Shown here: piece after piece, positions 5,445 to 32,409 of the stretch | Layout of the letters: every line of letters starts with the position of its first letter | Position numbering within the stretch: the first letter of the stretch is position 1 | Source: Chrysiogenales bacterium | GTDB taxonomy: Bacteria; Acidobacteriota; Aminicenantia; UBA2199 | Length of the DNA: 35,478 nt | Direction: 5' to 3' | Assembly (NCBI GenBank): GCA_004525465.1 | Contig: SPCN01000001.1 | Coordinates: 1 to 35,478, forward strand | Program-made: the position numbers and the translations under genes | The notes under the pieces: model-generated | Databases searched by the model: none | What the model was told of the DNA's origin: nothing | What the model saw: the letters and a program-made list of their open reading frames with translations, nothing else

Positions 5445-6392
5445 CTAGATCAACGGCCAGGTCTGCGTGGGCAGATAGAAGATCATCTCCACCTGGGTGC
5501 CGACTTTCTTTTCGGAAATGATCACCAGTTTGTCGGCGAAGCGCTTCATGTTGGCGATGCCCATGCCGGCGCCGAAGCCGCGCTCGCGGATGTAATCGGG
5601 GGCGGTCGAGTACCCTTCCTTCATGGCCTTGTCCAGGTCTTCGATACCGATACCATTGTCCACCACACGCACGATGAAGCGGTCTTCATGCTGAAAAAAG
5701 TAGATATCGCCCTGACCGCGGCTATGGATGACCACGTTGGTCTCGGCCTCATAGGTGGCCACGCCGACGCGGCGCACAATGTCGCTGTGAAAACTCTTAC
5801 CGGTCAGGAACTGTTTGAGCATGGCGGCGCCCGTGCCGGCGGCGTCGATGTCGCTGCTGTCGATCTGGTAGTGGAATTCGGCTTCCTCGATCTTCAGCTT
5901 TTCGCCGGTAATGGCCGAGTATTCGGTGTTCAGGGTGCTGGTGCGTTTCTGGTCGTGGATGTAGATGAGGTTGAACTTTTCCAGGATGCCATGCAGGATG
6001 TCTTCCTTGCTGATGATGCCGCAGACGCGTTTATCGTCGTCGACCACCGGGAAGCGGCCGTACTTGTAATTTTCGAACTTGTCCACCACATCGGCCAGCG
6101 AGTCGTCCTTGTGGATGGTGACGACCTGGGTAGACATGATCCGGTGGATGGGGTCGTTGATCTTGTTGAATTCGAAGGCGTGAATGATGTCCTCGATGCT
6201 GATGATGCCGATCAGCTGCTTGTTCTCGTCGACCACCGGCATGCCCGAGATCTTCTTGATCTTCATCAGTTCCTTGGCGTGGGCGATCTTTTTGTCGGCG
6301 GAGATCTCGACCACGTTGGAACTCATGATCTCTCCGGCCTTGATATCCTCAAAAATGGCCGCGTAGCGGGCCAGCTTGTTATTTTCCGACAT
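5445..6392 (-). CDS. CBS-pair domain protein fused to a GHKL (RsbW/SpoIIAB-like, HATPase_c) ATPase/kinase domain
   Basis: I start at the internal Met (MSENNKLARY, ATG at 6392) rather than the track start at 6485, whose Pro/Ala/Cys-rich extension overlaps the DRTGG gene. Two CBS-like repeats are present (IMSSNVV...GMPVVD and IMSTQVV...RFPVVD). The C-terminus carries YEAETNVVIHS (N-box), VDNGIGI (G1) and GFGAGMG (G2). Confidence 0.8.
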   Translation of the reverse strand: MSENNKLARYAAIFEDIKAGEIMSSNVVEISADKKIAHAKELMKIKKISGMPVVDENKQLIGIISIEDIIHAFEFNKINDPIHRIMSTQVVTIHKDDSLADVVDKFENYKYGRFPVVDDDKRVCGIISKEDILHGILEKFNLIYIHDQKRTSTLNTEYSAITGEKLKIEEAEFHYQIDSSDIDAAGTGAAMLKQFLTGKSFHSDIVRRVGVATYEAETNVVIHSRGQGDIYFFQHEDRFIVRVVDNGIGIEDLDKAMKEGYSTAPDYIRERGFGAGMGIANMKRFADKLVIISEKKVGTQVEMIFYLPTQTWPLI

Positions 6393-6735
6393 CGCTGCCC
6401 CGCAATCCGGTGGCGTAGAGCTTGCCGCACGAGGAATAGAGGTAGCTGCGGGTGCGCAGCAGGAGAAAATCGTTCTCGCGGGCATAGGCGATGGTTTCCG
6501 GGGCGATGTTCTTGCCGCGGACCACGATCAGTCCCAGCAGATCGGTGACCAGGGCGGTGCGGATCACCTGCGGATAAGTGTAGCCGGTCAGAACCATCAT
6601 CCCGGGTTGGGTCAGGGCCAGGATGTCGCTGATCATATCGCTGGCTCCAACCGATTTCACCTCTTCATCCAGTTTGCTTTCCCCGGATAGGACTTCGGCC
6701 TCAAGCAGGGCGACGATGTCGCGGACTTTGATCAT
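6379..6735 (-). CDS. DRTGG-domain protein (paralog 1)
   Basis: 118 aa. VRDIVALLEAEVLSG...ASDMISDILA...VLTGYTYPQVIRTA...IVVRGKNI...LLLRT is the standalone DRTGG pattern and aligns clearly with the 7642-7977 product. It overlaps the downstream CBS-ATPase start by 14 nt. Confidence 0.75.
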   Translation of the reverse strand: MIKVRDIVALLEAEVLSGESKLDEEVKSVGASDMISDILALTQPGMMVLTGYTYPQVIRTALVTDLLGLIVVRGKNIAPETIAYARENDFLLLRTRSYLYSSCGKLYATGLRGSDVGK

Positions 6736-6782: not shown

Positions 6783-7337
6783 TCAGTTTTCAGTGTAGAT
6801 TTCCTTTTCGTACCAGGTCTCCAGGCGCAGTTTGTGCTTGGCTTCTTCCTGGGCCAGGGCCAGGAAGGTCTCGCGCATGGGCTCGTCCTCGGCCATAGCC
6901 GCCAGGTCATTGTAGAATTTGAACGAGGCTTTTTCCCGGCGCATGGCCACGATCAGGGCTTCCTGGTAGTCCATGTCCGGTGTGGGTAAGATGTCGACCA
7001 GGTAGTCGACGATTTTAAGGTCGGTCACCTGCTTGGCCGAGGGTTTGAAGGTGCTGCCGCTCTTGACCCGCTGCAGCTTCTCTTTGTGCTGGTTTTCCTC
7101 GCCGGCGAACTGAATGAATTGCTCGCGCAGGGCCTTGTTGTCCAGCTTGTTCGACCAATCCAGGTAGAATTGGCGGGCTTCTTCTTCTTTTTCGATGGCG
7201 AAATCCAGGACTTCCTGAACGGATTTGAATGTGGAAAGAATCATCATGGGTTCGCCGCAACAGACCAGCTGTCCCTTGCCTTCGGCGATCACCTTGACGA
7301 TCTTCCCGCAGATGGAGCATTTGTAAAAATCGGTCAT
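6783..7337 (-). CDS. Desulforedoxin-like domain fused to a ferritin-like/rubrerythrin-family diiron four-helix bundle (no C-terminal rubredoxin)
   Basis: The N-terminus [31 protein letters not shown] matches the desulforedoxin CxxCG...CCG FeS4 motif. The remainder has [26 protein letters not shown] and QEEAKHK, i.e. E / ExxH / E / ExxH diiron ligand spacing. GGGGAGG RBS. Confidence 0.85.
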
Positions 7338-7455: not shown

Positions 7456-7483
7456 GTAGGGGCGCGGCCTGCCGCGCCCCTAC
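7456..7483. repeat. GC-rich REP-like perfect palindrome (R1)
   Basis: GTAGGGGCGCGGC ct GCCGCGCCCCTAC, with 13 complementary positions per arm. Its right half is near-identical to 17732-17744 (GCCGTGCCCCTAC). Confidence 0.7.
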
Positions 7484-7530: not shown

Positions 7531-7559
7531 TTGACTTTTAAGCCGATTTTTTATAACAT
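7531..7559 (+). promoter_or_regulatory. Candidate sigma70-type promoter of the formate dehydrogenase operon
   Basis: TTGACT (7531-7536), then either TATAAC (7552-7557, 15-nt spacer) or TAACAT (7554-7559, 17-nt spacer). An AT palindrome ATAAAA-T-TTTTAT lies just upstream at 7506-7518. The leader to the ATG at 7642 is about 80 nt. Confidence 0.35.
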
Positions 7560-7641: not shown

Positions 7642-7977
7642 ATGTTGGTCAAAGAGGTTGCCGACAAGCTGGACTTGAAAATTCTGGCTGCTGGTGTCGA
7701 TCAGGAAGTGACAAGCGGATACGTGTCCGACCTGCTGTCCGATGTCATTGCCAACGCCGAAGAAGGTTGCCTGTGGATCACCGTGCAAAAGCACCTGAAC
7801 ATCGTGGCCGTGGCCCAGTTGAAAAAACTGGCCGGCATCGTCCTCAGCCGCGGCAGCGAACCCGAAGCCGCCGTTTTGGCCCGGGCCGGGCAGGAAGGCC
7901 TGTTCATTCTTTCCGGAGCCGAGGATTCCTTCACCATTGCCGGCAAATTGTACGCCCTCATTTCCGCATCGAAGTAA
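7642..7977 (+). CDS. DRTGG-domain protein (paralog 2), first gene of the FDH operon
   Basis: 111 aa. VKEVADKLDLKILAAG...VSDLLSDVIA...ITVQKHLNIVAVA...IVLSRGSEP...FILSG aligns with the 6379-6735 product. GAGGAG RBS lies 8 nt upstream. Confidence 0.8.
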   Translation: MLVKEVADKLDLKILAAGVDQEVTSGYVSDLLSDVIANAEEGCLWITVQKHLNIVAVAQLKKLAGIVLSRGSEPEAAVLARAGQEGLFILSGAEDSFTIAGKLYALISASK

Positions 7978-8040: not shown

Positions 8041-8571
8041 ATGGAAGCTCAACCGCTCCATATCCCGGATAATGCCCATTACCAGGAACTGAAAAAATTC
8101 ATCGAGGCTAACCGCAATGTTCCCGGCCCCCTGATCCAGGTCCTGCACCGGGCCCAGAAAATTTTCGGTTATCTGCCCTTGGAGGTCCAGCACTTCGTTG
8201 CCCGTGAATTGAATGTGCCCTTGGCTAAAGTTTTCGGCGTGATAACCTTTTACAATTTTTTCCGCCTGGACCCCATCGGCGATCATATCATCAACCTCTG
8301 CTTGGGCACGGCCTGCCATGTCAAGGGGGCATCGGACATCATCAAGGTCATGGAAAAGGAATTGGGCATCAAGGTGGGTGGCACCACGGCCGATCGCTTC
8401 TATACCCTGTCCACGGCCCGTTGTTTCGGAGCTTGCGGACTGGCCCCGGTCATGATGCTCGACGAAGAGGTGCACGGCCGGCTCAATCCCCAGAAGACCA
8501 TCAAGATTTTGCGAGACCTGAAAGCCGAAGCCGCCGGCCCTGGGCAAACCAAAAACAAGGAGAAAAAATGA
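8041..8571 (+). CDS. NuoE/HydC/FdsG-like thioredoxin-fold [2Fe-2S] subunit (copy 1)
   Basis: Start moved to the ATG at 8041 (AAGGAGG 5 nt upstream). Cluster motif is LCLGTACHVKG ... CFGACGLAPV (C-x4-C ... C-x3-C). The stop overlaps the next start (ATGA). Confidence 0.9.
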   Translation: MEAQPLHIPDNAHYQELKKFIEANRNVPGPLIQVLHRAQKIFGYLPLEVQHFVARELNVPLAKVFGVITFYNFFRLDPIGDHIINLCLGTACHVKGASDIIKVMEKELGIKVGGTTADRFYTLSTARCFGACGLAPVMMLDEEVHGRLNPQKTIKILRDLKAEAAGPGQTKNKEKK

Positions 8572-8930
8572 AACTCGAGGATTTAAAGAAGATAAGGGAA
8601 AAAACGGAAAAGGACATGCTGCTGCGAGCCGGAAAAACGCGGCTGCAGGTGGTTGTGGGCATGGGTACCAGCGGCATCGCTGCCGGCGCCCGTGAAACCC
8701 TGAAAGTGTTGCTTGAAGAAGTGGAAAAACGCAACCTGCGCGACGTCATCGTCCGTCAGGCCGGTGAACGCGGTTTGAGCTCGCACGAACCGATCGTCAC
8801 GGTCATGGAGGAAGGCAAGCCATCCGTGGTTTACGGTAATGTCAGCGGCGAAATGGCCCGCAAGATCGTAGCCGAGCACCTGGTAAACGGCAATCCCCTT
8901 TCGGAATCCATCATCGAAGTCAAGGAATAA
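8568..8930 (+). CDS. HndB/HydD-like small thioredoxin-fold subunit, completely Cys-free
   Basis: Start at the ATG at 8568 (AAGGAG upstream); the track ORF 8421 extension is out of character. VVVGMGTSGIAAGA ... AGERGLSSHEPIV is the fold signature of the small 2Fe-2S-ferredoxin-like subunits, but the 120 aa contain no cysteine. Confidence 0.75.
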   Translation: MKLEDLKKIREKTEKDMLLRAGKTRLQVVVGMGTSGIAAGARETLKVLLEEVEKRNLRDVIVRQAGERGLSSHEPIVTVMEEGKPSVVYGNVSGEMARKIVAEHLVNGNPLSESIIEVKE

Positions 8931-8942
8931 AGCGAGGGCGAT

Positions 8943-11900
8943 ATGAACAAACGGCTGGATGTGCTGATCTGCGGAGGAGGTGCCTGTATCTCTTCCCACA
9001 GCCATGAACTCAAGAAGAAACTGCTGGAGGAGATCGAAAAAAACGGGTTGAGTGAAGAAGTTATCGTTGTGGAAACAGGCTGCATGGGCCCCTGCGAACT
9101 GGGGCCGGTCATGGTCGTTTATCCTGAAGGTTCCTTTTACATAAACTTAAAGGAAGAAAACGCCGAGGAGATCGTTCAGGAGCATTTCCTCAAAGGGCGG
9201 CCGGTGCAGAAATTTCTCTGGCAGGTCCCCGAGGCTCGCAGGATCGTCGAGCAGAAGAAGCAGATCCCTTTTTTTGAAAAGCAACTTAAGATCGTTTTAT
9301 CCAACTGCGGCAAGATCGATCCGGAAAACATCGGCGAATACATTGCCCAGCGCGGCTATGAGGCCCTGGGCACGGCCGTGACCCGCATGTCCCCCGAACA
9401 GGTCATCGATACCCTCACCAGGTCGGGGCTGCGCGGCCGCGGCGGTGCCGGCTTTTCCACCGGCCTGAAATGGAAATTCGCTTTTGACAGCAAAAGTGAC
9501 CAGAAATACGTCCTCTGCAACGCCGACGAAGGTGATCCAGGGGCTTTCATGGACCGGGCCGTGCTCGAGGGTGACCCGCACGCCGTGCTGGAAGGCATGG
9601 CCCTGGCCGGCTACGCCATCGGAGCCGACAAGGGCTATATCTACGTCCGAGCCGAATACCCCCTGGCCATAGAACGCCTGAACACGGCCATCGGCCAGGC
9701 CCGCGAAATGGGGCTGCTGGGCAAAAATATTTTCGAGACCTCTTTCCATTTCGACATCGAACTGCGCATGGGCGCCGGCGCTTTTGTCTGCGGGGAGGAG
9801 ACGGCGCTCATGGCCTCTGTCGAAGGCCAGCGCGGCCAGCCCAGGCCCAAACCGCCTTTTCCGGCGGTCAAGGGCTTGTGGGGCAAGCCTTCGGTGATCA
9901 ACAATGTCGAGACCCTGGCAAATGTCCGCCACATTCTGCTCAACGGCTGGGAGTGGTTCAGCGCCATCGGCACCGAAAGGAGCAAAGGCACCAAGGTCTT
10001 CGCCCTGTCGGGCAAGGTGACCAATACCGGCCTGGTGGAAGTGCCCATGGGCATCACCTTGGGCGAACTGGTATTCGATATCGGCGGCGGTATCCCCGGC
10101 GGCAAGGCCTTCAAGGCCGCCCAGACCGGCGGACCCTCGGGAGGCTGCATCCCGGCCAAGTACCTGAATACCTCCCTTGATTACGAGTCGCTGAAAACAT
10201 TAGGCTCGATCATGGGTTCCGGCGGCCTGATCGTCCTGGACGAGGACAGCTGCATGGTCAACATGGCCAAGTATTTCCTGGAGTTTTCTTTGGAGGAATC
10301 CTGCGGCCAGTGTGTTCCCTGCCGGGTAGGCTTGAAGCAGATGTACGACTTGCTGGAAAAAATCACCACCGGCAGCGGCACCATGGCCGACCTTGAAAAA
10401 CTCGAACAACTTGCCTATACGGTACGGGCTACTTCACTCTGCGGCCTTGGTCAGGCGGCACCCAACCCGGTTATTTCGACCATCAAATATTTCAAGCACG
10501 AATATATCGAACATATACAGGAAAAAAAATGTACGGCCGGCGTGTGCGCGGCCTTATTCCCGGCTCCCTGTGTCAACGCCTGCCCGGCCGGGGTTGATGC
10601 CGCCTCCTATGTTTCGCACATGGGCGACGGCCGCCTGCGCGAGGCCTATTTTCAGCACATGCAGAACAACCCGTTTCCCATCGTCTGCGCCCGGGTCTGT
10701 CCGGCTTTCTGCGAAAGCAAGTGTTCGCGCGGCAAGTACGATCAGGCCGTGGCCATACGCGAAGTCAAGCGCCTGTTCGCCGACTGGGCCATCGACCAAG
10801 GACTGGGATTCGCACCGCCGCTGCCGGCGCACAAGGAAAAAGTAGCCGTGGTCGGCGCCGGGCCGGCCGGGCTGGCCTGCGCTTTCTACCTGACCCGTCT
10901 GGGCTACAAGCCGGTGGTTTTCGAAGCCCTGAAAGTGGCCGGCGGCATGATGAAGGTCGGCATCCCCGATTTCCGCCTGCCCAAGGACAAGCTGCAGGCC
11001 GAGATCGCGGTCATCGAAAAGGCCGGGGTGCAGATCAAACTGAATTCTCCGGTGGCCAATATAGACGAATTGACGAATAGTGGCTATGCCGCCGTGTTCA
11101 TCGGCAGCGGCGCTCATCAGGCCCAGAAGCTGAATATCGAAGGCATCGACCTCAAGGGCGTGATGTCAGGCATCGATTTCCTGCGCGAGGTCAACCTGGG
11201 CCGCAAAATAAATATCGGCAATGACATAGTGGTGGTCGGCGGCGGTTCGACCGCCATGGACGCCGCCCGCCTGGCCCGCCGCCTGGGGGCCGGCAACGTG
11301 CGCCTGGTCTACCGGCGCACCCGCAGTGAAATGCCGGCCCTGCTTGAAGAAGTGGTCGGGGCCGAGGCAGAAGGCGTGGAAATGGATTTCCTGGTCAATC
11401 CGCTCAAAATCGTCGGCCGCGCCGGCAAGATCAGCGGCATCCATTGCATCAAGACCGAGCTGGCCGATTTTGACGATTCAGGCCGCCGCCGGCCGGTCCC
11501 GGTCGATGGCAGCGAGTACACTATCCGCGCCAGTTTCATCATCTATTGCCTGGGCCAGAAGCTCAGCCTGGGACTGACCGGGGGCAAGCTGGACCTGGAT
11601 AAGCGCGGCCATATCGCCGTGGATGCGCGCACCATGGTCACCAGCGCCGCGGGAGTATTCGCCGGCGGCGACGCCGTCAATCCCGCGACCGTGATCGAAA
11701 GCGTGGCTCAAGGGCGCCTGGCGGCCGTGAGCATCGACCGTTATTTCGGCCGTGAAGGCCGGCTCTATGACCAGCCGCGCCGGGTGGTCGAGGTCCATTA
11801 TGACGAAGAGGCCTACCTGAAGACCATCGAGCGCAAGGAGCCCCTGCTCGAGGATGCCGAAAAGCGCGTTAGCGAATTGGCCCTGGAGGTCAGCCGCGGA

Positions 11901-12017
11901 TTGACAGCGGATGAGGCCGTGGAAGAGGCGCGGCGCTGTTTGCACTGCGATCGCGACCAGGCACCGGAAAAGGAAGCCAGCACGACCGAATCATTGGCCA
12001 TTGAGGCCATGCTGTGA
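8943..12017 (+). CDS. Fusion protein: Trx-like [2Fe-2S] domain + NuoF/HydB-like FMN/NADH module + GltD/NfnB-like 2x[4Fe-4S]-FAD-NADPH module
   Basis: aa 1-95: ICGGGAC ... TGCMGPCELGP. NuoF core: GLRGRGGAGFSTGLKW, ADEGDPGAFMDR, ESCGQCVPCRVG ... LCGLG. From Cys530 (nt 10530): CTAGVCAALFPAPCVNACPAG ... VCARVCPAFCESKCSRG, then VAVVGAGPAGLA (FAD), VVVGGGSTAMDAA and VRLVYRRTRSEMPA (NADPH-type), and GVFAGGD. Confidence 0.9.
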   Translation: MNKRLDVLICGGGACISSHSHELKKKLLEEIEKNGLSEEVIVVETGCMGPCELGPVMVVYPEGSFYINLKEENAEEIVQEHFLKGRPVQKFLWQVPEARRIVEQKKQIPFFEKQLKIVLSNCGKIDPENIGEYIAQRGYEALGTAVTRMSPEQVIDTLTRSGLRGRGGAGFSTGLKWKFAFDSKSDQKYVLCNADEGDPGAFMDRAVLEGDPHAVLEGMALAGYAIGADKGYIYVRAEYPLAIERLNTAIGQAREMGLLGKNIFETSFHFDIELRMGAGAFVCGEETALMASVEGQRGQPRPKPPFPAVKGLWGKPSVINNVETLANVRHILLNGWEWFSAIGTERSKGTKVFALSGKVTNTGLVEVPMGITLGELVFDIGGGIPGGKAFKAAQTGGPSGGCIPAKYLNTSLDYESLKTLGSIMGSGGLIVLDEDSCMVNMAKYFLEFSLEESCGQCVPCRVGLKQMYDLLEKITTGSGTMADLEKLEQLAYTVRATSLCGLGQAAPNPVISTIKYFKHEYIEHIQEKKCTAGVCAALFPAPCVNACPAGVDAASYVSHMGDGRLREAYFQHMQNNPFPIVCARVCPAFCESKCSRGKYDQAVAIREVKRLFADWAIDQGLGFAPPLPAHKEKVAVVGAGPAGLACAFYLTRLGYKPVVFEALKVAGGMMKVGIPDFRLPKDKLQAEIAVIEKAGVQIKLNSPVANIDELTNSGYAAVFIGSGAHQAQKLNIEGIDLKGVMSGIDFLREVNLGRKINIGNDIVVVGGGSTAMDAARLARRLGAGNVRLVYRRTRSEMPALLEEVVGAEAEGVEMDFLVNPLKIVGRAGKISGIHCIKTELADFDDSGRRRPVPVDGSEYTIRASFIIYCLGQKLSLGLTGGKLDLDKRGHIAVDARTMVTSAAGVFAGGDAVNPATVIESVAQGRLAAVSIDRYFGREGRLYDQPRRVVEVHYDEEAYLKTIERKEPLLEDAEKRVSELALEVSRGLTADEAVEEARRCLHCDRDQAPEKEASTTESLAIEAML

Positions 12018-12024
12018 GGAATGT

Positions 12025-12483
12025 ATGAACCGTGAAAAAATACTGCATAATTACGAGGCTTCGGACGACAACCTGCTGGCCATCCTGCACGATATCCAGG
12101 ATGCCAGTCCCGAGCACTACCTGAGCGAAGCCGACCTGCGAGCCGTCGCCGACTACCTCGGCTTGGCCTACAGTTTCGTGTACGGCGTAGCCACGTTCTA
12201 CACCATGTTCAGCCTGAAACCCCGGGGCAGGCACCTCATCCGCGTCTGCCAGTCTCCTCCCTGCCACCTGCTGGGCTCCACGAATATCGCCAAGGAGTTG
12301 ATCCGGCTGCTGGGAATCGGTTTCGGCGAAACCAGCGCCGACAAGCGCTTTACCTTGGAAATGTCATCCTGCCTGGGCGTGTGCGGAGTGGCTCCGGCCA
12401 TGATGGTCAATAGCCAGGTCTACGGCAACCTGACCCCCGATCTCATCGCGGAAGTCATCGAAGGGTTGCGGAGGGGAAAATGA
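12025..12483 (+). CDS. NuoE/HydC/FdsG-like [2Fe-2S] subunit (copy 2)
   Basis: Start at the ATG at 12025 (MNREKIL) after GAGGAA; the track ORF start at 11911 lies inside the upstream gene. Cluster motif is VCQSPPCHLLG ... SCLGVCGVAPA. The stop overlaps the next start. Confidence 0.9.
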   Translation: MNREKILHNYEASDDNLLAILHDIQDASPEHYLSEADLRAVADYLGLAYSFVYGVATFYTMFSLKPRGRHLIRVCQSPPCHLLGSTNIAKELIRLLGIGFGETSADKRFTLEMSSCLGVCGVAPAMMVNSQVYGNLTPDLIAEVIEGLRRGK

Positions 12484-14078
12484 GCATTTACCGTACGCAC
12501 ATCCTGCTGCCGATCGACGAGGGAACAGTTCTGGCCGGGGTTTTCCAAGTCAAACGCCGGCTGGAAAGAGAGTTGCAATCGAGAAAAATGCAGAATGAAA
12601 TAAAAGTCTTGGAAAGCGGCAGCGTCGGCATTGTCGGAAAAGGCGTCATCCTGACCGTTTTTCCCGACCGCATGTACTATTTTCAGGTCAAGGAAAACGA
12701 CATCGCCCGCATCATCGAGGAGCATTTGCTCAAAGGGCGGATCGTCGCCGACCTGGCCCACGGCCACGTGGCCGACATGACTGCGGACCTGACCGCTGCC
12801 CGCGTCGGACTGACGCGCGAGCAGCGCCGCGTGGTGCTGGACAAAGCCTGGGCCGTGGATCCGCAAAACATCAATGAAGTCCTGGCCGCCGGCGCTTACC
12901 GGGCCCTGGAAAAAATATTCAGCGACAAACTCAGCCCGGAACAGGTGATCGAAGAAGTAAAGCGATCGGGGCTGCGCGGCCGCGGCGGCGCCGGATTTCC
13001 CACCGGCATGAAATGGGAATTCACGCGCCAGGCGGCGGGCGCTGAAAAATACATCATCTGCAACGCCGATGAGGGTGAGCCCGGAACCTTCAAGGACCGG
13101 CTGATCCTCGAGGGTGATCCGCACAAACTTATCGAGGCCATGACCATCGCCGCCTTCGCCATCGGCGCCGGCCGCGGCTATGTCTATATCCGCGGCGAAT
13201 ACGGGCTCTCCATCGAGCGCATGCAAAAGGCCATCGACCAGGCCCGGGAATTCAACCTGTTGGGTAAAAACATCCTGGAGACCGGCTTTGCCTTCGAACT
13301 GGAAATCAAAAAGGGCGCCGGAGCCTATATCTGCGGCGAGGAAACGGCGCTGATCGAATCGCTGGAAGGCAAGCGCGGCAACCCGCGCGTCAAGCCGCCT
13401 TACCCGGTCAGCAAAGGGCTGTGGCAGAAACCCACCGCGGTCAACAATGTTGAAACCCTGGCCAATATTCCGGCCATCATCAGCAACGGCGCCGGCTGGT
13501 TCCGCAAGATCGGCACCGAAAAGTGCCCGGGCACCAAGGTGTTTACCATTCTCGGACACGTCGAGTACCCGGGGCTGATCGAGACCGACATGGGCACGCC
13601 CTTGCGCGAGATCATTTTCTCGTTCGGGGGCGGCATCAAGGGCGGCAAAAAATTCAAAGCTGCTTTACTCGGCGGCGCCGCCGGTGTGTTCCTGTCCGAA
13701 CCCCTGCTGGACGTGAAGATGGATTTCGAGAACCTGAAGGAAAGCAAGGCGGTGCTCGGTTCCGGGGCCGTACTGGTCATGAACGAGGACACTTCGATCG
13801 TGGACATGCTCTTTTCCATCGCCAAGTTTTTCGCCCACGAATCCTGCGGCCAGTGTGCGCCCTGCCGCATCGGCACCAGGCAGATCCTCAATATCGTCTA
13901 CCGCATCCGCCGTGGAGCCGGGAAAAAGGGTGACCCGCAGACCCTGCTGCATCTGGCCGAGACCATGTTCAAATCATCGCTCTGCCCGCTGGGTCAGTCG
14001 CTGGTCATGCCGGTCAAGAGCGCCCTGGAAAATTTTAAAGACGAATTCGCGTTGGCCATCAGCCAATCTGAGAAATAA
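12480..14078 (+). CDS. NuoF/HydB/FdsB-like FMN/NAD(H) [4Fe-4S] subunit (copy 2) with a degenerate, Cys-free N-terminal Trx-like domain
   Basis: GLRGRGGAGFPTGMKW, ADEGEPGTFKDR, ESCGQCAPCRIG ... SLCPLGQS. The N-domain ESGSVGIVGKGVILTVFPDRMYYFQVKENDIARIIEEHLLKGR aligns with ETGCMGPCELGPVMVVYPEGSFYINLKEENAEEIVQEHFLKGR of the fusion protein, but all Cys ligands are replaced. There is no C-terminal ferredoxin domain. Confidence 0.9.
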   Translation: MSIYRTHILLPIDEGTVLAGVFQVKRRLERELQSRKMQNEIKVLESGSVGIVGKGVILTVFPDRMYYFQVKENDIARIIEEHLLKGRIVADLAHGHVADMTADLTAARVGLTREQRRVVLDKAWAVDPQNINEVLAAGAYRALEKIFSDKLSPEQVIEEVKRSGLRGRGGAGFPTGMKWEFTRQAAGAEKYIICNADEGEPGTFKDRLILEGDPHKLIEAMTIAAFAIGAGRGYVYIRGEYGLSIERMQKAIDQAREFNLLGKNILETGFAFELEIKKGAGAYICGEETALIESLEGKRGNPRVKPPYPVSKGLWQKPTAVNNVETLANIPAIISNGAGWFRKIGTEKCPGTKVFTILGHVEYPGLIETDMGTPLREIIFSFGGGIKGGKKFKAALLGGAAGVFLSEPLLDVKMDFENLKESKAVLGSGAVLVMNEDTSIVDMLFSIAKFFAHESCGQCAPCRIGTRQILNIVYRIRRGAGKKGDPQTLLHLAETMFKSSLCPLGQSLVMPVKSALENFKDEFALAISQSEK

Positions 14079-14092
14079 CAAAGGAGGCATGC

Positions 14093-16816
14093 ATGTCGGA
14101 AACGGTAATTATTAATATTGACGGCAAGGAGATCAAGGCGGCCAAGGAAGCCAACCTGCTGCAAGTGGCCCGGGACAACGGCTTTGATATTCCCGGTTTG
14201 TGTTTTTACGAAAAAGTGACCGCCAGCGGCGATTGCCGGTTGTGCGTGGTGAAAATAGAAGGAAGGCCGGGCATGGTCCCCGCCTGCCTGGTCAAGGTCG
14301 AGGCGGGCATGAAAGTCACGGCTTTTGATACGCAGCTGGAAGAAACGCGCAGAATGCTGGCCGACCTGCTGCTCTCCGAACACAATGACGACTGCATCAC
14401 CTGCGAGCGCGACGGCGACTGCGGCATCCAGGACCTGGCCTTCCGCTACGACCTCGACACGCCCAAGCGCACTTTCGCTGCAGTCTGGAAGGAGATTCCC
14501 CAGGCCCCGGATGCTTCGGCGCCGGTGCTGTTCTATGATTCATCCAAGTGCATCAAGTGCGAACGCTGCGTCAAGGCCTGCTTCGAGATCCAGGGTAAAG
14601 GTGTTTTGAGTATGGCCCAGCGCGGTATTCATAGCCATGTCGTGGCCGGAACCGGCCAGTGGTCGGGATCGGAATGCGACGGCTGCGGTGACTGCGTGCA
14701 GGCCTGCCCGGTCGGAGCCCTGATGGAAAAGCCGGTCTACGGCCAGAAACTTAAGAAAAAGGATGTGCAGAATAAAGTGGTTACCACCTGCCCTTATTGC
14801 GGTGTCGGCTGCCAGCTTGAACTCTGGATCAAGGACGAGAAAATCGTCAAGGTCAAGGGGGCGGACTCGGTGCCCAACTACGGCGCCGCCTGCGTCAAGG
14901 GCCGTTTCGGCCTGGATTTCGTCCAGCGCCCCGACCGCTTGACCAAGCCCTTGGTGCGCAAGGAAGGCAAACTTGTCGAATGCTCCTGGGACGAAGCCCT
15001 GGACACGGTGGCCAATAAGCTTGGCGCCATCAAGAAAGAGCACGGGCCTGCCGCCCTGGCCGGCCTCTCTTCGGCCAAGTGCACCAACGAGGAAAATTTT
15101 GTTTTTCAGAAATTCGTGCGCACCGCCTTCGGTTCCAACAATGTCGATCACTGCGCCCGTTTGTGCCACGCCTCGACCGTGGCCGGCCTGGCCCGCACTT
15201 TCGGCTCCGGCGCCATGACCAATTCCATTGAGGAGCTTGAGCGGGCAGAGGTCATCCTGGTTACCGGCTCCAACACCACCGAGACCCACCCGGTCATCGC
15301 CACGCGCATCAAGAAGGCAGTCCTTTTTCACGGCGCCAAGCTGATCGTGATCGATCCGCGTAAAATAGAGCTGGTCAAATACACCGAAAAATACGGCGGC
15401 CTGTGGCTGCGCCAGAAAAACGGCAGCGACGTGGCCTGGGCCAACGGCATGATGCAGGTGATCATCAGTGAAGGGCTGCTCAATGAGGAATTCATAAAAA
15501 CTCGCACCGAGGATTTTGAGGCTCTAAAAAAAATGGTCGAGGGTTTCACTCCGGAAAAAGTGGAAAAAATCAGTGGCATTCCCGCCAAACAACTGCAGGC
15601 GGCGGCTCGTTTGTACGCCAAGGCCAAGAGCGGTTCCATTGTCTATTCCATGGGCATTACTCAGCACACCACCGGCACCGACAATGTCATGTCCATGGCC
15701 AACCTGGCCATGGTCACCGGCAATGTGGGCCGCGAGTCGGTGGGGGTCAACCCCTTGCGCGGCCAGAACAACGTGCAGGGGGCCTGCGACTTGGGTGCTT
15801 TGCCCAATGTCTATCCCGGCTACCAGGCCGTTACCGATGCCGCTATCAGGGAGAAATTTGAAAAAGCCTGGGGAGTCAAGCTCGACGACAAAGTAGGTTT
15901 GACCGTAGTGGAAATCATGCACGCTGCAGCGGAAGGCAAGATTAAGGGCTTGTACATCATGGGCGAGAACCCGATGGTGTCGGATCCCGACCTCAACCAT
16001 GTCAAGCTGGCCCTGGAGAAACTCGATTTCCTGGTGGTCCAGGACATCTTCCTGACCGAGACCGCCCAACTGGCCGATGTGGTGCTGCCGGTGGCATCGT
16101 TTGCCGAAAAGCAGGGCACCTTCACCAATACCGAACGCCGGGTGCTGTGGGTGGAAAAAGCCGTTGCAGCTCCGGGCCAAGCGCGCATCGACTGGGAGGT
16201 CATCCGCGACGTGAGCACGCGCATGGGCTATGCCATGGATTACAAGTGCCTGGAAGACATCGTTAACGAGGTTAACCGCCTGGTGCCGCAATATGCCGGT
16301 ATCACCTATCAGCGCCTGCTCAACGGCGAAAAACTGCAATGGCCCTGTCCCAATCCCGAGCACCCGGGGACGAAATTCCTGCATCGCGACAAATTCAGCC
16401 GCGGCCTGGGCAAGTTCTTCGCCATCGATTACATCCCGCCGGCCGAATGGCCCGACGCCGAATATCCTTTCCTGCTGTCTACCGGGCGCATCCTGTACCA
16501 TTACCATACCGGTTCCATGAGCCGGCGCACCGTGGCCCTGCCGCAGTACGTCGCCGGCCCGTACATGGAAATGCACGCCCAGGACATGAAAAAAATGGCT
16601 ATCGTTGACGGCGAGGAAGTGCGGGTGGCGTCGCGGCGCGGCGAGATCAGGATCCCGGCCCAAGAAAGTCCTCGCGTTGACTTGGGTTCGGTGTTTATCC
16701 CTTTCCATTTCGCCGAGGCAGCGGCCAACGTGCTGACCAACGACGCCTTCGACCCGATCGCCAAGATACCCGAGTTCAAAGTGGCAGCCTGCCAAATAGA
16801 AAAAATTAAATCATAA
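14093..16816 (+). CDS. fdhA: Formate dehydrogenase catalytic subunit, NuoG-like N-terminus + Mo/W-bis-PGD domain (FdsA/FdhA type), Cys at the Sec position
   Basis: [2Fe-2S] CFYEKVTASGDCRLC; His-ligated cluster HNDDCITCERDGDC; 2x[4Fe-4S] CIKCERCVKAC and CDGCGDCVQACP; MopB cluster TTCPYCGVGCQ; active site NVDHCARLCHAST (Cys codon 15164-15166). AAAGGAGG RBS. Confidence 0.9.
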   Translation: MSETVIINIDGKEIKAAKEANLLQVARDNGFDIPGLCFYEKVTASGDCRLCVVKIEGRPGMVPACLVKVEAGMKVTAFDTQLEETRRMLADLLLSEHNDDCITCERDGDCGIQDLAFRYDLDTPKRTFAAVWKEIPQAPDASAPVLFYDSSKCIKCERCVKACFEIQGKGVLSMAQRGIHSHVVAGTGQWSGSECDGCGDCVQACPVGALMEKPVYGQKLKKKDVQNKVVTTCPYCGVGCQLELWIKDEKIVKVKGADSVPNYGAACVKGRFGLDFVQRPDRLTKPLVRKEGKLVECSWDEALDTVANKLGAIKKEHGPAALAGLSSAKCTNEENFVFQKFVRTAFGSNNVDHCARLCHASTVAGLARTFGSGAMTNSIEELERAEVILVTGSNTTETHPVIATRIKKAVLFHGAKLIVIDPRKIELVKYTEKYGGLWLRQKNGSDVAWANGMMQVIISEGLLNEEFIKTRTEDFEALKKMVEGFTPEKVEKISGIPAKQLQAAARLYAKAKSGSIVYSMGITQHTTGTDNVMSMANLAMVTGNVGRESVGVNPLRGQNNVQGACDLGALPNVYPGYQAVTDAAIREKFEKAWGVKLDDKVGLTVVEIMHAAAEGKIKGLYIMGENPMVSDPDLNHVKLALEKLDFLVVQDIFLTETAQLADVVLPVASFAEKQGTFTNTERRVLWVEKAVAAPGQARIDWEVIRDVSTRMGYAMDYKCLEDIVNEVNRLVPQYAGITYQRLLNGEKLQWPCPNPEHPGTKFLHRDKFSRGLGKFFAIDYIPPAEWPDAEYPFLLSTGRILYHYHTGSMSRRTVALPQYVAGPYMEMHAQDMKKMAIVDGEEVRVASRRGEIRIPAQESPRVDLGSVFIPFHFAEAAANVLTNDAFDPIAKIPEFKVAACQIEKIKS

Positions 16817-16831
16817 AAAGGAGAATGTAAA

Positions 16832-17686
16832 ATGGAGTACGACTGCAAATCCCCGGCCATGGTGGCCGCGGACCTGAATGAGAACATTTGCGTCAAGAAA
16901 ACCACGAACAATGCGTTCAAACTGCTGGTGCTGGGCATCCTGGCCGGCGCCTACATTGGTTTCGGCGGCGAACTGTCGAATATGATCGGCCATGACGCGG
17001 CCAAGTTCGTCGGCGCCGGCCTGGCCGCCTTCATCAAAGGCGCGGTGTTTTCCACCGGCCTGATGCTGGTCGTCATTGCCGGGGCGGAGCTGTTCACCGG
17101 CAACACCCTGATCACCATTTCGGTGCTGGACGGTAAATCCAAGTTCAGCGGCCTGCTGTACAACTGGTCGGTCATCTACGTGGCCAACCTGATCGGCTCG
17201 CTGTTGATAGCCTACCTGATGTTCGGCAGCGGCCTTTTGGAAGGCGCCAACGTGGCTGTCGGCGCCGCCGCCTTGAAGACAGCCGCCGGCAAGGTCGGGC
17301 TGGCCTTCTGGCCGGCTTTTTTCCGCGGCATTCTCTGCAACTGGCTGGTCTGCCTGGCGGTGTGGATGGCGCTGGCTTCGCGCAATACCATCGGCAAGGT
17401 CTGGGCCATCTTCTTTCCGATCATGGCCTTCGTGGCCTCAGGCTTCGAGCATAGCGTCGCCAACATGTATTTCATCCCCGTCGGCATGCTGCTCAAAGGG
17501 GTTAACGAAGTGGTGGCGGCCGCGAGCGCTGCCGGCTTGTCTGCCGAATCCCTGGCCAATGTCGGCTGGTACGGCTTCCTGGTCAGGAACCTGGTGCCGG
17601 TCACCCTGGGCAACATCGTCGGCGGCGGCTTCTTTGTGGCCACCCTGTATTGGTTCACCTATATCCGCAAGGGCAAAAAAGCCTAA
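16832..17686 (+). CDS. focA: Formate/nitrite transporter family channel (FocA-like)
   Basis: 284 aa, about 6 TM. Contains ELFTGN, GFEHSVANMYF and ILCNWLVCLAVW, which are characteristic FNT motifs. AAAGGAGA RBS; 15 nt after the fdhA stop. Confidence 0.85.
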   Translation: MEYDCKSPAMVAADLNENICVKKTTNNAFKLLVLGILAGAYIGFGGELSNMIGHDAAKFVGAGLAAFIKGAVFSTGLMLVVIAGAELFTGNTLITISVLDGKSKFSGLLYNWSVIYVANLIGSLLIAYLMFGSGLLEGANVAVGAAALKTAAGKVGLAFWPAFFRGILCNWLVCLAVWMALASRNTIGKVWAIFFPIMAFVASGFEHSVANMYFIPVGMLLKGVNEVVAAASAAGLSAESLANVGWYGFLVRNLVPVTLGNIVGGGFFVATLYWFTYIRKGKKA

Positions 17687-17859: not shown

Positions 17860-17887
17860 TTGACAAAATGATAAATTGATTTATAAT
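17860..17887 (+). promoter_or_regulatory. Near-consensus sigma70 promoter with embedded palindrome (possible TetR operator)
   Basis: TTGACA (17860-17865), 16 nt, TATAAT (17882-17887). The palindrome ATAAAT-tg-ATTTAT (17871-17884) overlaps the -10. It lies 33 nt upstream of the TetR gene. Confidence 0.5.
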
Positions 17888-17919
17888 TAATAGTGAGCGT
17901 TAACTAACAATAGGATAAA

Positions 17920-18519
17920 ATGGCGCGATTAAACACCGTAGAAAGACAAAAACATATAGTTGAGCAAGCAATAAAAATTATTAATGCCAACGGCTATTCC
18001 TCGCTCTCGATCAGAGAACTCGCCCATAAAGTGAGAATAAGCGAAGCGGCGATTTACAGGCACTTTCTAAACAAAGAAGATATTATTCTTGGCATCCTGA
18101 CACTTTTTTGCGGTTTTGATAAGCAGTTGAATCAGGAAATCGCGCTTCTTCATAATCCTTTGGAAAAACTGAAACACTTCATGCTGTTTCATTTTACATA
18201 TTTGGAAAAACATGTGGCCATGACCTCGGTCATATTCTCTGAGGATATATTCAACCAAAGCGAGATTCTAAAAAAGAAAATGCAGTCTATCATTAAAAAT
18301 AGAAAGAAGGCTCTATTTGACATTGTCAGCGCCATAAAATCGGAAAATTGCATATCGGAAATGGATGTCGAAGAATTTGTTGTGATAATTTTAGGCTATA
18401 TAAGACTTATAGTATTGGAATGGAGATTAAGTAACTATGCTTTTTCCCTAAAAGCCAGAGGAAATAAGGCCATAAAGTTTGTAAAAACAATTCTGCCGAA
18501 AAAAATTAAAAGTATTTAA
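17920..18519 (+). CDS. TetR/AcrR-family transcriptional regulator
   Basis: N-terminal HTH: IVEQAIKIINANGYSSLSIRELAHKVRISEAAIYRHFLNKEDI. Confidence 0.9.
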   Translation: MARLNTVERQKHIVEQAIKIINANGYSSLSIRELAHKVRISEAAIYRHFLNKEDIILGILTLFCGFDKQLNQEIALLHNPLEKLKHFMLFHFTYLEKHVAMTSVIFSEDIFNQSEILKKKMQSIIKNRKKALFDIVSAIKSENCISEMDVEEFVVIILGYIRLIVLEWRLSNYAFSLKARGNKAIKFVKTILPKKIKSI

Positions 18520-18535
18520 ATGAGAGGTAAATAAA

Positions 18536-19501: not shown

Positions 19502-19517
19502 AAATATAGAGTAAACA

Positions 19518-20453: not shown

Positions 20454-20454
20454 A

Positions 20455-31656: not shown

Positions 31657-32409
31657 TCAGAAATTGAGCAGGATCGGCCGCGGCTTGAGCACGTGGCCGA
31701 TCAGGGTCAGGCCGCTGTGGCGCACGATCTCCAGGGCCTTGCCGGTCAGGGTGGTTTGGGAAACCAGGGCCGGCATGCCGGCATGCAGCACCTTCAGGGC
31801 CATTTCCGCCGAAACGCGGCCGGTGATGAAAAGGGCGGTGCGGGCGAAATCAGCGCCGTGGACAAGCCCCCAGCCGATGACCTTGTCCACGCTGTTGCTG
31901 CGGCCGATGTCTTCCCGGCTGACCAGGATGCGCTGCTCCCGCATGTCGACCAGCATGGAGCAGTGGATGCCGCCGTGCTTTTTGAATAGGGGCGTTCGCC
32001 CGGGCAGCTGCTCCATCAGGCGGATCGCCTGCGGCAAGGTGAAATCGTAACACCTGGACACCTTGGGCAGATTGTTGAACAGGTCGGGTTGCACATCGCC
32101 GCCCGAGCAGGCAACCACCTGGACCGGGTGGTAATGCTCCAGGCGCGGCGCGGCCGAGGGCCGCAAACGCACCAGGGCCCGGTCGGCCTGGATGCGCAGA
32201 GCGGCGGCATCGCCCGGGGTCTGCAGCAGGCCCTGGGAGAAAAGCCAGCCCAGGACCAGTTCCTTGCGGTCGACGGGCGAGCAGCTCAGGCGGCTTAAGG
32301 GGCGACCGTCGACCTCGATGGTCAGCAAAACCTCTTCGGGCAGAGGCACCAGCCCCGTTTCCCGGCGCTTTTCAGGAGTCGGATTTTTTTTCGTTCTGCA
32401 GGTAGGCAT
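31657..32409 (-). CDS. fdhD: Formate dehydrogenase accessory sulfurtransferase FdhD
   Basis: REDIGRSNSVDKVIGW (GRHxxxDK-type motif) and FITGRVSAEMALKVLHAGMPALVSQTTLTGKALE ... GLTLIGH. The start at 32409 overlaps mobA by 38 nt and is not certain. Confidence 0.8.
   Translation of the reverse strand: MPTCRTKKNPTPEKRRETGLVPLPEEVLLTIEVDGRPLSRLSCSPVDRKELVLGWLFSQGLLQTPGDAAALRIQADRALVRLRPSAAPRLEHYHPVQVVACSGGDVQPDLFNNLPKVSRCYDFTLPQAIRLMEQLPGRTPLFKKHGGIHCSMLVDMREQRILVSREDIGRSNSVDKVIGWGLVHGADFARTALFITGRVSAEMALKVLHAGMPALVSQTTLTGKALEIVRHSGLTLIGHVLKPRPILLNF

Follow-up and report, generated by a model that had tools for sequence, protein, structure and literature searches.

A predicted bifurcating-type flavoprotein subunit with an NfnL/GltD-like module in place of its ferredoxin-like domain, encoded in a formate dehydrogenase operon

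Can a formate dehydrogenase (FDH) of the electron-bifurcating type do without ferredoxin? The question is raised by one gene in a stretch of 35,478 nucleotides (positions 1 to 35,478 of contig SPCN01000001.1, assembly GCA_004525465.1, Chrysiogenales bacterium), hereafter the window, which encodes in a single chain a NuoF/HydB-type flavoprotein followed by a module of the GltD/NfnB type. To our knowledge, ferredoxin is the low-potential partner in all experimentally known NuoF-type (Bfu) bifurcating enzymes, where it is served by the C-terminal domain of the B subunit. Genes of the present kind are currently read as "NuoF" or as parts of a "ferredoxin-dependent confurcating FDH or hydrogenase". 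The architecture, which we write BfuB::NfnL, was already noted in silico in 2024 and is common, hence it is not unreported (PMC11406978); the paper that classifies the Bfu family is silent on it (PMC9304861).

Our analysis leads us to assign the gene to the flavoprotein (B) subunit of a cytoplasmic FDH related to Bfu and HydABC enzymes, in which the ferredoxin-like domain with clusters B3 and B4 has been swapped, at a Zn-tethered linker, for an NfnL/GltD-like module with two [4Fe-4S] clusters, flavin adenine dinucleotide (FAD) and an NADPH site. We see the chances as evenly balanced that NADP(H) would take the place of ferredoxin on the low-potential branch, so that formate/CO2 would be coupled to both NAD(H) and NADP(H).

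Two flavoprotein modules in one chain

The fusion gene is genuine and not an assembly artefact, because the identical architecture recurs across independent assemblies and phyla. Its frame (8943..12017, forward strand) reads as 1024 codons without an internal stop. A homologue search covering 5.8 billion proteins recovered more than 120 clusters at 90% identity, about 990-1030 amino acids (aa) long and 52-100% identical, all with the same domain list, and a scan of a genome collection, which considered the best 600 candidates and therefore gives lower bounds for phylum counts, added at least 55 full-length loci of equal architecture and length. Copies 96-97% identical were recovered in independent JGI, ENA and Logan assemblies, and the loci numbered L088 and L089 in our survey reproduce the entire operon. 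The two halves of the protein co-vary (pairwise identities, r = 0.70), and a CxxC motif near the C-terminus would complete a cluster whose remaining ligands come right after the junction. The preliminary description of this DNA, made from its letters, had warned that a missed stop or frameshift might have merged separate nuoF and gltD genes; with a continuous frame and so many independent homologues we reject this explanation, which has practically no chance of being right.

The same description had proposed a single-chain union of NuoF/HydB with GltD/NfnB, and this is borne out by Pfam, by sequence matches in the PDB and by fold matches. All four Pfam families that it named for a check are matched with strong E-values: Complex1_51K at aa 159-329 (7.7e-47), NADH_4Fe-4S at aa 441-524 (1.4e-32), Fer4_20 at aa 529-619 (9e-21, covering only profile positions 18-111 of 113, so that the start of the domain is absent) and Pyr_redox_2 at aa 633-924 (2.1e-26). 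An SLBB domain lies between the first two, and aa 5-80 give a weak match to the thioredoxin-like [2Fe-2S] family (2Fe-2S_thioredx). The spread of the fusion among full-length proteins, also named for a check, extends over the more than 120 clusters and over more than 15 phyla. NCBIfam holds no model for the full-length fusion, and each half scores under the equivalog cut-offs. The motifs GGGSTAMDAA (aa 766-775), LVYRRTRSEMPA (aa 788-799) and EEARRCLHCD (aa 994-1003) are invariant or almost invariant in sets of 24 and of 77 homologues. A single-chain AlphaFold2 model is confident in both halves, including the C-terminal helix (mean predicted local distance difference test score, pLDDT, 81.7), with a predicted TM-score (pTM) of 0.66 that leaves the relative placement of the halves uncertain. 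Foldseek matches each half separately, with a highest query TM-score of 0.45, and found no solved chain that spans both.

The N-terminal half (aa 1-540) is predicted to be a bifurcating-type B subunit (BfuB/HydB) and not a plain NuoF. Over aa 4-540 it matches HydB of the A. mobile NiFe enzyme (7t2r_B, E 1e-236), A. woodii HydB (7q4v_B, E 6e-230; 58% identical), T. sibiricus NfnB (9n5u_B, E 2e-198) and StnB (8oh5_B, E 4e-194), as against 1e-118 to 1e-113 for chains of non-bifurcating NuoF and FdsB. We rejected a plain complex I NuoF or an Fds-type B subunit, since bifurcating B subunits match about 120 orders of magnitude better; a plain NuoF is also ruled out by the B5 and Zn-linker motifs, which are specific to Bfu. 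Among 24 homologues the four cysteines of the N-terminal [2Fe-2S] site B5 (C10, C15, C47 and C51), the ligands C454, C457, C460 and C500 of the N3/B1 [4Fe-4S] cluster and the motifs GRGGAGF, NADEGDPGAF and GAFVCGEETAL are all invariant. The features by which a B subunit of the Bfu family is recognised (PMC9304861) are accordingly found one after another: a NuoF-like domain for flavin mononucleotide (FMN) and NAD(H) with the B1 cluster, the N-terminal four-cysteine domain B5, a putative Zn site (B2) in the linker formed by H524, C530 and C535, and neighbouring genes for BfuC and a NuoG-like partner. The role of BfuC falls to NuoE1, encoded immediately 5' of the fusion, and FdhA is encoded in the same operon with NuoE2 and NuoF2 in between. 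The exception is the ferredoxin-like domain: neither Pfam nor the alignments found a Fer4 dicluster domain for B3 and B4 in the fusion.

The alignments also locate the junction. Homology to bifurcating B subunits extends through EYIEHIQEKKCTAGVCAAL and ends at about aa 540, some 15-20 residues beyond the point where alignments to ordinary NuoF end. H524, C530 and C535 belong to the BfuB linker, because the bifurcating-B alignments continue past them and those of NuoF stop; the pattern HI..KKC.A..C is common to the fusion, 7q4v_B, 7t2r_B, 8oh5_B and 9bov_B. In BfuB this linker is stabilised by Zn at the B2 site and tethers the C-terminal ferredoxin-like domain (PMC10482914, PMC11829005). Homology to NfnL and GltD begins at A541-P-C543 in the PDB alignments, and we place the junction at about nt 10562/10563. 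This is about 11 residues downstream of the earlier placement at nt 10525-10530; the linker cysteines had been counted as GltD region, whereas CTAGVC is part of the BfuB linker. We also rejected the idea that CTAGVC makes up half of the cluster motif of GltD, at its beginning; the missing CxxC of that motif is found at aa 999-1002.

Residues 541-1003 are assigned to an NfnL/GltD-like module of the Stn/NfnABC kind. From aa 541 onward the chain matches residues 102-567 of C. saccharolyticus NfnA (9bov_A, E 4.5e-109; 42% identical), residues 105-530 of T. sibiricus NfnA (9n5u_A, E 4.2e-108) and residues 102-566 of S. ovata StnC (8oh5_C, E 8e-93); the last match confirms the earlier statement that Stn carries its GltD-like module on the NuoG-like subunit. 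T. maritima NfnB (4ylf_B) aligns by its residues 46-461 with aa 542-937 (E 1.4e-89), and by its residues 4-43 (...EEALEEAQRCLQC) with aa 964-1003. Because NfnB aligns as two pieces in swapped order, the helix with the CxxC is displaced to the C-terminus, as had been suspected of EEARRCLHCD. In StnC and C. saccharolyticus NfnA this segment likewise follows the NfnL domain, at residues ~560-567 (RCLEC at ~563-567).

The Fer4_20 region supplies the candidate ligands C543, C547, C586, C590, C594 and K609. An ungapped alignment carries the proximal-cluster ligands of NfnA and StnC (C108/C147/C151/K170) over to C547/C586/C590/K609, and by elimination the distal [4Fe-4S] would be held by C543, C594, C999 and C1002, the C-terminal CxxC being predicted to complete it. 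The cluster cysteines are present in 76-77 of 77 fused sequences (those of the Fer4_20 region in all 77, C999 and C1002 in 76), as are GGGxxAxD and YRR. The FAD and NADPH domains contain GAGPAGL (aa 638-644), the GGGSTAMDAA motif already given and YRR (aa 790-792), and R678, the counterpart of NfnB R201 and StnC R239, is conserved. As regards cofactors, the expected set of [2Fe-2S], FMN, N3-type [4Fe-4S], two further [4Fe-4S], FAD and an NADPH site stands, with all ligands and FAD/NADPH motifs conserved, and the overlooked Zn-linker site has to be added to it. At position 609 the 77 fused sequences have Lys (71) or His (6), where the proximal cluster of NfnSL has Glu. Both marks of the Stn/NfnABC module, a Lys-ligated proximal [4Fe-4S] and a CxxC located 3' of the module, are present in the fusion.

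This position bears on a reading in which the enzyme would have two bifurcation centres, the FAD bifurcating as in NfnSL, in concert with the FMN-FeS centre, and ferredoxin docking at the distal [4Fe-4S], again as in NfnSL, as proposed by the authors of PMC11406978. NfnL, a homologue of the module, has a bifurcating FAD, the conserved R678 is present, and binding of ferredoxin to the module is compatible with the sequence. Yet the module is nearest to NfnA and StnC and not to NfnL, its proximal ligand is mostly Lys, as in the Stn/NfnABC enzymes with their arguably non-bifurcating FAD, in place of the Glu of NfnL, and the scanned open reading frames (ORFs) of the window include no NfnS/PyrK-like gene for a high-potential partner. 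PMC11406978 suggests that the FAD bifurcates as well; its Lys-ligated neighbour cluster and the permutation of the Stn type favour a non-bifurcating FAD, and we hold the two-centre reading to be very unlikely.

The operon and its relatives

The fusion is the fourth gene in the order DRTGG, NuoE1, BfuD-like, fusion, NuoE2, NuoF2, FdhA, FocA (Table 1). From 8041 to 17686 the genes are separated by no more than 15 nt or overlap by 4 nt; the BfuD-like gene has a 4-nt overlap with the stop of NuoE1, and NuoE2 starts 7 nt past the fusion stop codon.

Table 1. Coordinates of the fusion gene, its parts and the surrounding genes in the window
Feature	Position	Strand	Evidence
CBS-HATPase gene and DRTGG/PucR-like gene, divergent from the operon	5445..6735	-	Pfam
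DRTGG gene, first of the operon	7642..7977	+	Pfam DRTGG, E 3.1e-6
NuoE1, BfuC/HydC-like thioredoxin-like [2Fe-2S] subunit	8041..8571	+	Pfam 2Fe-2S_thioredx, E 3e-47
BfuD/HydD-like protein, 120 aa	8568..8930	+	36% identical to fusion aa 4-97, E 4e-15
BfuB::NfnL fusion, 1024 aa	8943..12017	+	Pfam, homologue search, PDB and fold matches
Fusion: N-terminal thioredoxin-like domain, putative four-Cys [2Fe-2S] site B5 (C10, C15, C47, C51)	8943..9227	+	Cys conservation, weak Pfam match
Fusion: FMN/NAD(H) Rossmann domain, SLBB, four-helix bundle with N3/B1 [4Fe-4S]	9417..10514	+	Pfam, motifs
Fusion: Bfu-specific linker motif H524-x5-C530-x4-C535	10512..10562	+	Alignment to bifurcating B subunits
Fusion: Fer4_20 (DPD_II) region, most ligands of two predicted [4Fe-4S] clusters	10563..10799	+	Pfam, alignment
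Fusion: FAD and NADPH Rossmann domains	10839..11714	+	Pfam Pyr_redox_2; pLDDT mostly >90
Fusion: displaced helix with CxxC (E995, R998, C999, C1002)	11832..11951	+	NfnB alignment; pLDDT ~89
NuoE2, NuoE/FdsG-like	12025..12483	+	Pfam 2Fe-2S_thioredx, E 1.3e-47; top NCBIfam model NuoE
NuoF2, 532 aa, non-bifurcating NuoF/FdsB-type flavoprotein (predicted)	12480..14078	+	Pfam Complex1_51K, NADH_4Fe-4S
FdhA, NuoG-like N-terminus ([2Fe-2S] and [4Fe-4S]) joined to FDH with Mo/W-bis(pyranopterin guanine dinucleotide)	14093..16816	+	
FocA-type formate/nitrite transporter, operon end	16832..17686	+	Pfam Form_Nir_trans, E 9.6e-80
FdhD/NarQ-family FDH maturation protein, ~15 kb off	31657..32409	-	Pfam FdhD-NarQ, E 3.5e-47

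NuoE1, whose top NCBIfam model is HoxE under the cut-off, has a homologue immediately 5' of the fusion in nearly all loci. The BfuD-like protein, to which Pfam and NCBIfam gave no match, is a paralogue of the domain with which the fusion begins, but all four of the cluster cysteines are substituted in it, and its gene is kept in many related operons. NuoF2 passes the NuoF equivalog NF010120 and is 46% identical to the N-terminal half of the fusion; because it lacks the cysteines of the N-terminal domain, the Zn-linker motif and any C-terminal domain, we assign it to the non-bifurcating FdsB/HoxF type. FdhA matches the Pfam families Fer2_4, NADH-G_4Fe-4S_3, Fer4_Nqo3, Molybdop_Fe4S4, Molybdopterin and Molydop_binding, scores 876 bits against TIGR01591 (Fdh-alpha; cut-off 666) and has Cys rather than selenocysteine in its active site (HCARLCHAS). 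No FdsD-like gene turned up in the scans of the window, which included no search aimed at FdsD. The scanned ORFs of the window include no ferredoxin gene. The FocA gene is also the terminal gene in L043 and L088, and the DRTGG gene, of a regulatory accessory kind usual in HydABC/Bfu operons, has the equal position in L001, L043, L085, L088 and L090.

Relatives of the fusion occur in more than 15 phyla. The genome-collection scan found it in Chloroflexota, Desulfobacterota, Spirochaetota, Verrucomicrobiota, Planctomycetota, Acidobacteriota, Bacteroidota and Bacillota, further in Armatimonadota, Omnitrophota, Nitrospirota and one metagenome-assembled genome (MAG) of Promethearchaeota (Asgard), and it is found in Atribacteria too. 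A library clustered at 50% identity contains about 12 full-length fusion clusters among the best 150 matches, and the nearest named homologues among the matches listed are from Spirochaetes MAGs (77% identical). We classed the neighbours of 57 fusion genes at 56 loci by BLAST against reference proteins with Pfam spot checks. The partner is an [FeFe]-hydrogenase HydA in 19 cases, a NuoG::FDH in 17-19, a [NiFe]-hydrogenase of the HoxU-Y-H type in 4-6 and a HoxU-like protein with a GltB-like "Glu_synthase" FMN protein in 5, and 9 cases at contig ends could not be classed. Cultured carriers of the hydrogenase version include Syntrophus gentianae and Desulfotignum balticum. The most frequent operon consists of NuoE, with or without D, the fusion and A, the NuoG-like or catalytic subunit. 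Because at least 40 loci have the fusion as the sole B subunit next to an A-type catalytic subunit, we expect it to be normally the sole B subunit of a BfuABC-like enzyme and to dock on A like an ordinary BfuB.

Several of these loci have arrangements of their own. L086 (5724-13756) has EtfB and EtfA immediately 5' of NuoE, the fusion and FdhA, the last in two ORFs of 354 and 527 aa, probably split at a selenocysteine TGA. L033 (6941-17866) has three NfnL/GltD-like modules around FdhA, namely a StnC-like NuoG-N::NfnL, the fusion and a separate GltD, and L017 (6892-9813) has a 974-aa FdhA::NuoE fusion ORF upstream of the fusion. In five loci (L019 4008-6421, L042 5270-7167, L044 12928-15228 of the promethearchaeote Loki_b31, L046 12892-15384 and L048 13033-15358) genes for a short Fe-S protein resembling HoxU and for a protein of about 530 aa with a GltB-type "Glu_synthase" FMN domain come after the fusion, an arrangement which suggests a NuoEF-GltD-GltB-like oxidoreductase, one of them in an Asgard archaeon.

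The most telling comparison for the C-terminal half is L043, where nine genes (HATPase, DRTGG, E1, D, F1, E2, F2, FdhA and FocA) match those of the window at 60-75% identity, and where F1, of about 596 aa, has a terminal Fer4 domain for two [4Fe-4S] clusters at the position of the fusion's module. Because this orthologous operon carries a Fer4 domain at the same place, orthologous enzymes have alternative cassettes, an NfnL module or a ferredoxin-like domain, on one linker; the earlier suggestion that the GltD region replaces the C-terminal ferredoxin domain of HydB-type subunits finds its demonstration in this comparison. In a neighbour-joining tree of the N-terminal half, drawn without support values, B subunits with the module are interspersed among those without it. 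Despite the co-variation of the halves, strictly vertical descent from one ancient fusion is therefore not supported.

The window differs from most loci in having two BC pairs, each a B subunit with its NuoE-like C subunit, before one A subunit. The same layout with the fusion is found with FDH (L001, L088), with NiFe-hydrogenase (L003), with FeFe-hydrogenase (L026, L085) and in an Atribacteria fragment (L087), and with an unfused, ferredoxin-domain F1 in L043, L065, L073, L075 and L081. We found no description in the literature of such a two-diaphorase layout, with a bifurcating and a non-bifurcating pair for a single A. It invites the reading that a transhydrogenase without an A subunit, composed of the fusion, NuoE1 and the BfuD-like protein, shuttles electrons between NADH at the FMN and NADPH at the FAD apart from an Fds-type NuoE2/NuoF2/FdhA enzyme, the two complexes being just co-transcribed so that formate-derived NADH is turned into NADPH. 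E2-F2-FdhA stand in the canonical order fdsG-fdsB-fdsA with a non-bifurcating F2, the window has two BC pairs but one A subunit, A subunits of three types are found behind E1-D-F1-E2-F2, as would be the case for an add-on E1-D-F1, and A-less BfuBC cores are recognised in the literature (Type 4 Bfu). We nevertheless consider this quite unlikely: most loci have no second NuoEF pair, and HydA, FdhA or HoxU-Y-H is accompanied there by the fusion as the one B subunit, the uncoupled transfer from NADH to NADP+ is endergonic at physiological pool potentials, and L043 has the double layout too, but with a ferredoxin-type F1.

Among the relatives that carry HydA, L090 is 88% and L085 69% identical. L090 (GCA_936414655.1, CAKYNO010000108.1, 6163-20781) has DRTGG-E1-D-F1::NfnL-E2-F2, then HydA, HydF, HydG, HydE and a 907-aa FdhA, and so has as many catalytic subunits as BC pairs, two of each. 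The operon of the window looks like that of L090 minus the hydrogenase segment. The arrangement in L090 hints that the BC pairs may work with separate catalytic subunits or in alternative complexes.

The surroundings of the operon are partly shared as well. A CBS-HATPase gene and two DRTGG genes flank it, and relatives also have PHP and HATPase genes; the pair of CBS-HATPase and DRTGG/PucR-like genes also flanks the operon in L001, L003, L085, L088 and L090. These genes make up a conserved accessory set of HydABC-type operons. Divergent from the operon lies a gene for a 184-aa desulfoferrodoxin-N/rubrerythrin fusion (6783-7337, reverse strand), a second rubrerythrin gene (31110-31583, reverse strand) lies near FdhD, and rubrerythrin-type oxidative-stress genes are found at the same place in L001, L088 and L090. 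Upstream of the operon, the 300 nt between the divergent genes contain a perfect G+C-rich stem of 12 bp at 7456-7483 (GTAGGGGCGCGG...CCGCGCCCCTAC), without a match in Rfam, and a weak promoter-like site at 7531-7559, of a kind not commoner than in shuffled sequence; promoter and terminator scans of the window gave counts no higher than shuffles, and Rfam and tRNA scans of it gave no match. Downstream, from 17860 to 24965, G+C falls from ~0.57 to ~0.39-0.41 over genes for TetR, an HlyD-like protein, an ABC ATPase, OEP, another ABC ATPase and two ABC-2 permeases, with a perfect TTGACA-16-TATAAT at 17860-17887 in front of them. We take this block for an efflux island, probably acquired by horizontal transfer; L088, a 97% identical relative, has it in synteny.

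Possible electron routes

In Bfu enzymes, mid-potential electrons pass through the clusters of the A subunit to the B1-FMN centre, where NAD(H) binds at the FMN, and the NuoE-like subunit has a mobile C-terminal domain whose [2Fe-2S] cluster, C1, swings away from the FMN towards B3/B4, with ferredoxin docking on the ferredoxin-like domain of BfuB (PMC11829005, PMC12018979, PMC10482914). By analogy, formate would be oxidised at the Mo/W site of FdhA, and electrons would travel through its NuoG-like clusters to the B1-FMN-C1 centre made by the fusion and NuoE1. NAD+ would be reduced at the FMN, and the route from C1 by way of B3/B4 to ferredoxin would be replaced by one from C1 to the distal [4Fe-4S], the Lys-ligated proximal [4Fe-4S], the FAD and NADP+. 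The FAD would probably be a plain two-electron/one-electron converter, as in Stn, and not a second bifurcation site, because of the Lys ligand and the Stn-type topology. The net reaction, 2 formate + NAD+ + NADP+ <-> 2 CO2 + NADH + NADPH, would be reversible and independent of ferredoxin, with coupling probably by gating of the NuoE domain as in Bfu enzymes, and NuoE2/NuoF2 would act as a conventional NAD-only diaphorase pair (FdsGB/HoxEF-like) on the same FdhA. With the NAD pool at about -280 mV, the NADP pool at about -380 mV and formate at an E0' of -420 mV (PMC9304861, Table 1), formate/CO2 would equilibrate with a mean pool potential of about -330 mV, and a coupled enzyme could help to make NADPH from dilute formate, or formate from NADH driven by NADPH. 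A precedent for a GltD-like NADP(H) subunit that serves an FDH is FdhAB of Moorella (PMC5736913).

Several points weigh against this coupled scheme. A full-text search of the literature found no biochemical or structural study of any NuoF::GltD protein, the model leaves the relative placement of the two halves uncertain, and the preference for NAD or NADP at either flavin is a prediction from motifs. The scheme leaves unexplained why the window has two BC pairs and one FdhA, and the sole published comment on the architecture takes the FAD for a possible second bifurcation centre (PMC11406978). Further, with formate at -420 mV the reduction of NAD+ and that of NADP+ are both downhill under standard conditions, and obligatory coupling is unnecessary. 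The last point leads to an enzyme in which the NfnL module is an independent second exit, as in Moorella, so that NAD+ is reduced at the FMN or NADP+ at the FAD with no coupling between them. Apart from the standard potentials, which make both reductions exergonic (PMC9304861, Table 1), a GltD-like subunit alone is enough for NADP-linked FDH activity in Moorella, and the FAD module belongs to the Stn type, regarded as non-bifurcating by the authors of the Stn study. We regard an uncoupled enzyme as unlikely, since the N-terminal half keeps the B5 cysteines, the Zn linker and a paired NuoE1, features that the paralogue NuoF2 in the same operon has lost, and since the module has been placed exactly on the gated low-potential arm and not on the A subunit.

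A more specific version of the coupled scheme can also be formulated, namely a ferredoxin-free bifurcating/confurcating enzyme in which NAD+ and NADP+ would share the electron pairs taken from formate, or from H2 in relatives, with the difference of about 100 mV between the pools in place of ferredoxin as the energy-coupling partner. In operons like that of the window, both BC pairs would assemble on one catalytic subunit, a two-diaphorase architecture not seen before; in its stronger form the FMN and the FAD would both bifurcate. We put this forward as a doubtful proposal.

Relation to known enzymes and significance

The closest described relatives are the sub-type I BfuB proteins from group A3 [FeFe]-hydrogenase clusters of Hydrogenedentota and other phyla, reported in silico in 2024 with homologues in Spirochaetota, Planctomycetota, Verrucomicrobiota and Thermodesulfobacteriota (PMC11406978), a distribution that agrees with our survey. 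Like the fusion, they have B3/B4 replaced by DPD_II (Fer4_20) and a C-terminal FAD/NAD(P)-binding domain, and BfuC and often BfuD adjoin. That study covers [FeFe]-hydrogenase clusters only, whereas the window has a Mo/W FDH followed by FocA and no HydA, and a second, non-bifurcating NuoEF pair is intercalated in its operon.

Comparable blocks, a BfuBC core and a permuted Lys-type NfnL module, make up the Stn/NfnABC enzymes (StnABC 8oh5, C. saccharolyticus 9bov, T. sibiricus 9n5u), which are 38-42% identical to the fusion over aa 541-1003 and 52-55% over aa 4-540. There, however, the module is inserted in A, the NuoG-like subunit, and supplies electrons to a mid-potential path, FAD-A7-A6-A3-A2-A1-B1, whereas here it is part of B; their B subunit keeps the ferredoxin-like domain that the fusion lacks, with ferredoxin as a substrate, and the pterin domain of their A subunit is inactive, where FdhA is of the active type. 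On subunit placement and the active-type FdhA we rejected membership of the fusion enzyme in Stn/NfnABC. Canonical Bfu enzymes (HydABC, NiFe-HydABCSL, HylABC-FdhF2) have the B subunits closest to the N-terminal half, with the B5 cysteines, FMN, B1 and Zn linker alike, and their operon grammar of DRTGG, NuoE, a small thioredoxin-like D, B and A matches that of the window. They have the B3/B4 ferredoxin-like domain, and because this part of the published invariant BfuBC core is absent from the fusion, its enzyme would not be a canonical Bfu enzyme; ferredoxin is probably not among its substrates.

NuoE2-NuoF2-FdhA repeat the order fdsG-fdsB-fdsA of FdsABG (R. capsulatus 6tg9, C. necator 6vw7) and resemble this enzyme and HoxEFU in detail, with a cluster-less N-terminal domain and no C-terminal domain in F2 and a NuoG-like N-terminus in FdhA, but Fds operons have neither a second BC pair nor an NADPH module. 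NfnSL and GltD have the fold and cofactors of aa 541-937 (4ylf_B, E 1.4e-89; 5jca_L; 6s6s_G). Their CxxC helix is N-terminal, the proximal ligand of NfnL is Glu and the partner is NfnS or GltB, whereas the fusion has the helix at the C-terminus, a Lys ligand and no NfnS gene among the ORFs scanned. In FdhAB of Moorella thermoacetica a GltD-like Fe-S flavoprotein links FDH to NADP(H) (PMC5736913), as proposed here, in the form of a separate beta subunit without NuoF/FMN module, NAD site or NuoE partner.

Four points of our analysis appear to be new: that the architecture is linked to FDH, that it occurs in operons containing two BC pairs, the demonstration from orthologous operons that the cassettes are exchanged, and the assignment of the module to the Stn/NfnABC kind (Lys-ligated and permuted). 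The practical value of the window itself is modest: to a family so far noticed rather than studied it contributes a case that is linked to FDH and has two BC pairs. The fusion offers a compact single-chain target for structural work on gating in Bfu enzymes, and the cassette swap in orthologous operons is a natural experiment on the connections that are possible at the low-potential branch. Interest would be high if ferredoxin-free bifurcation between NAD and NADP were demonstrated. Should the coupled scheme be true, many anaerobes would have a direct, ferredoxin-free link from formate or H2 to the NAD as well as the NADP pool, and models of redox balance and energy yield in syntrophy, acetogenesis and fermentation would change.

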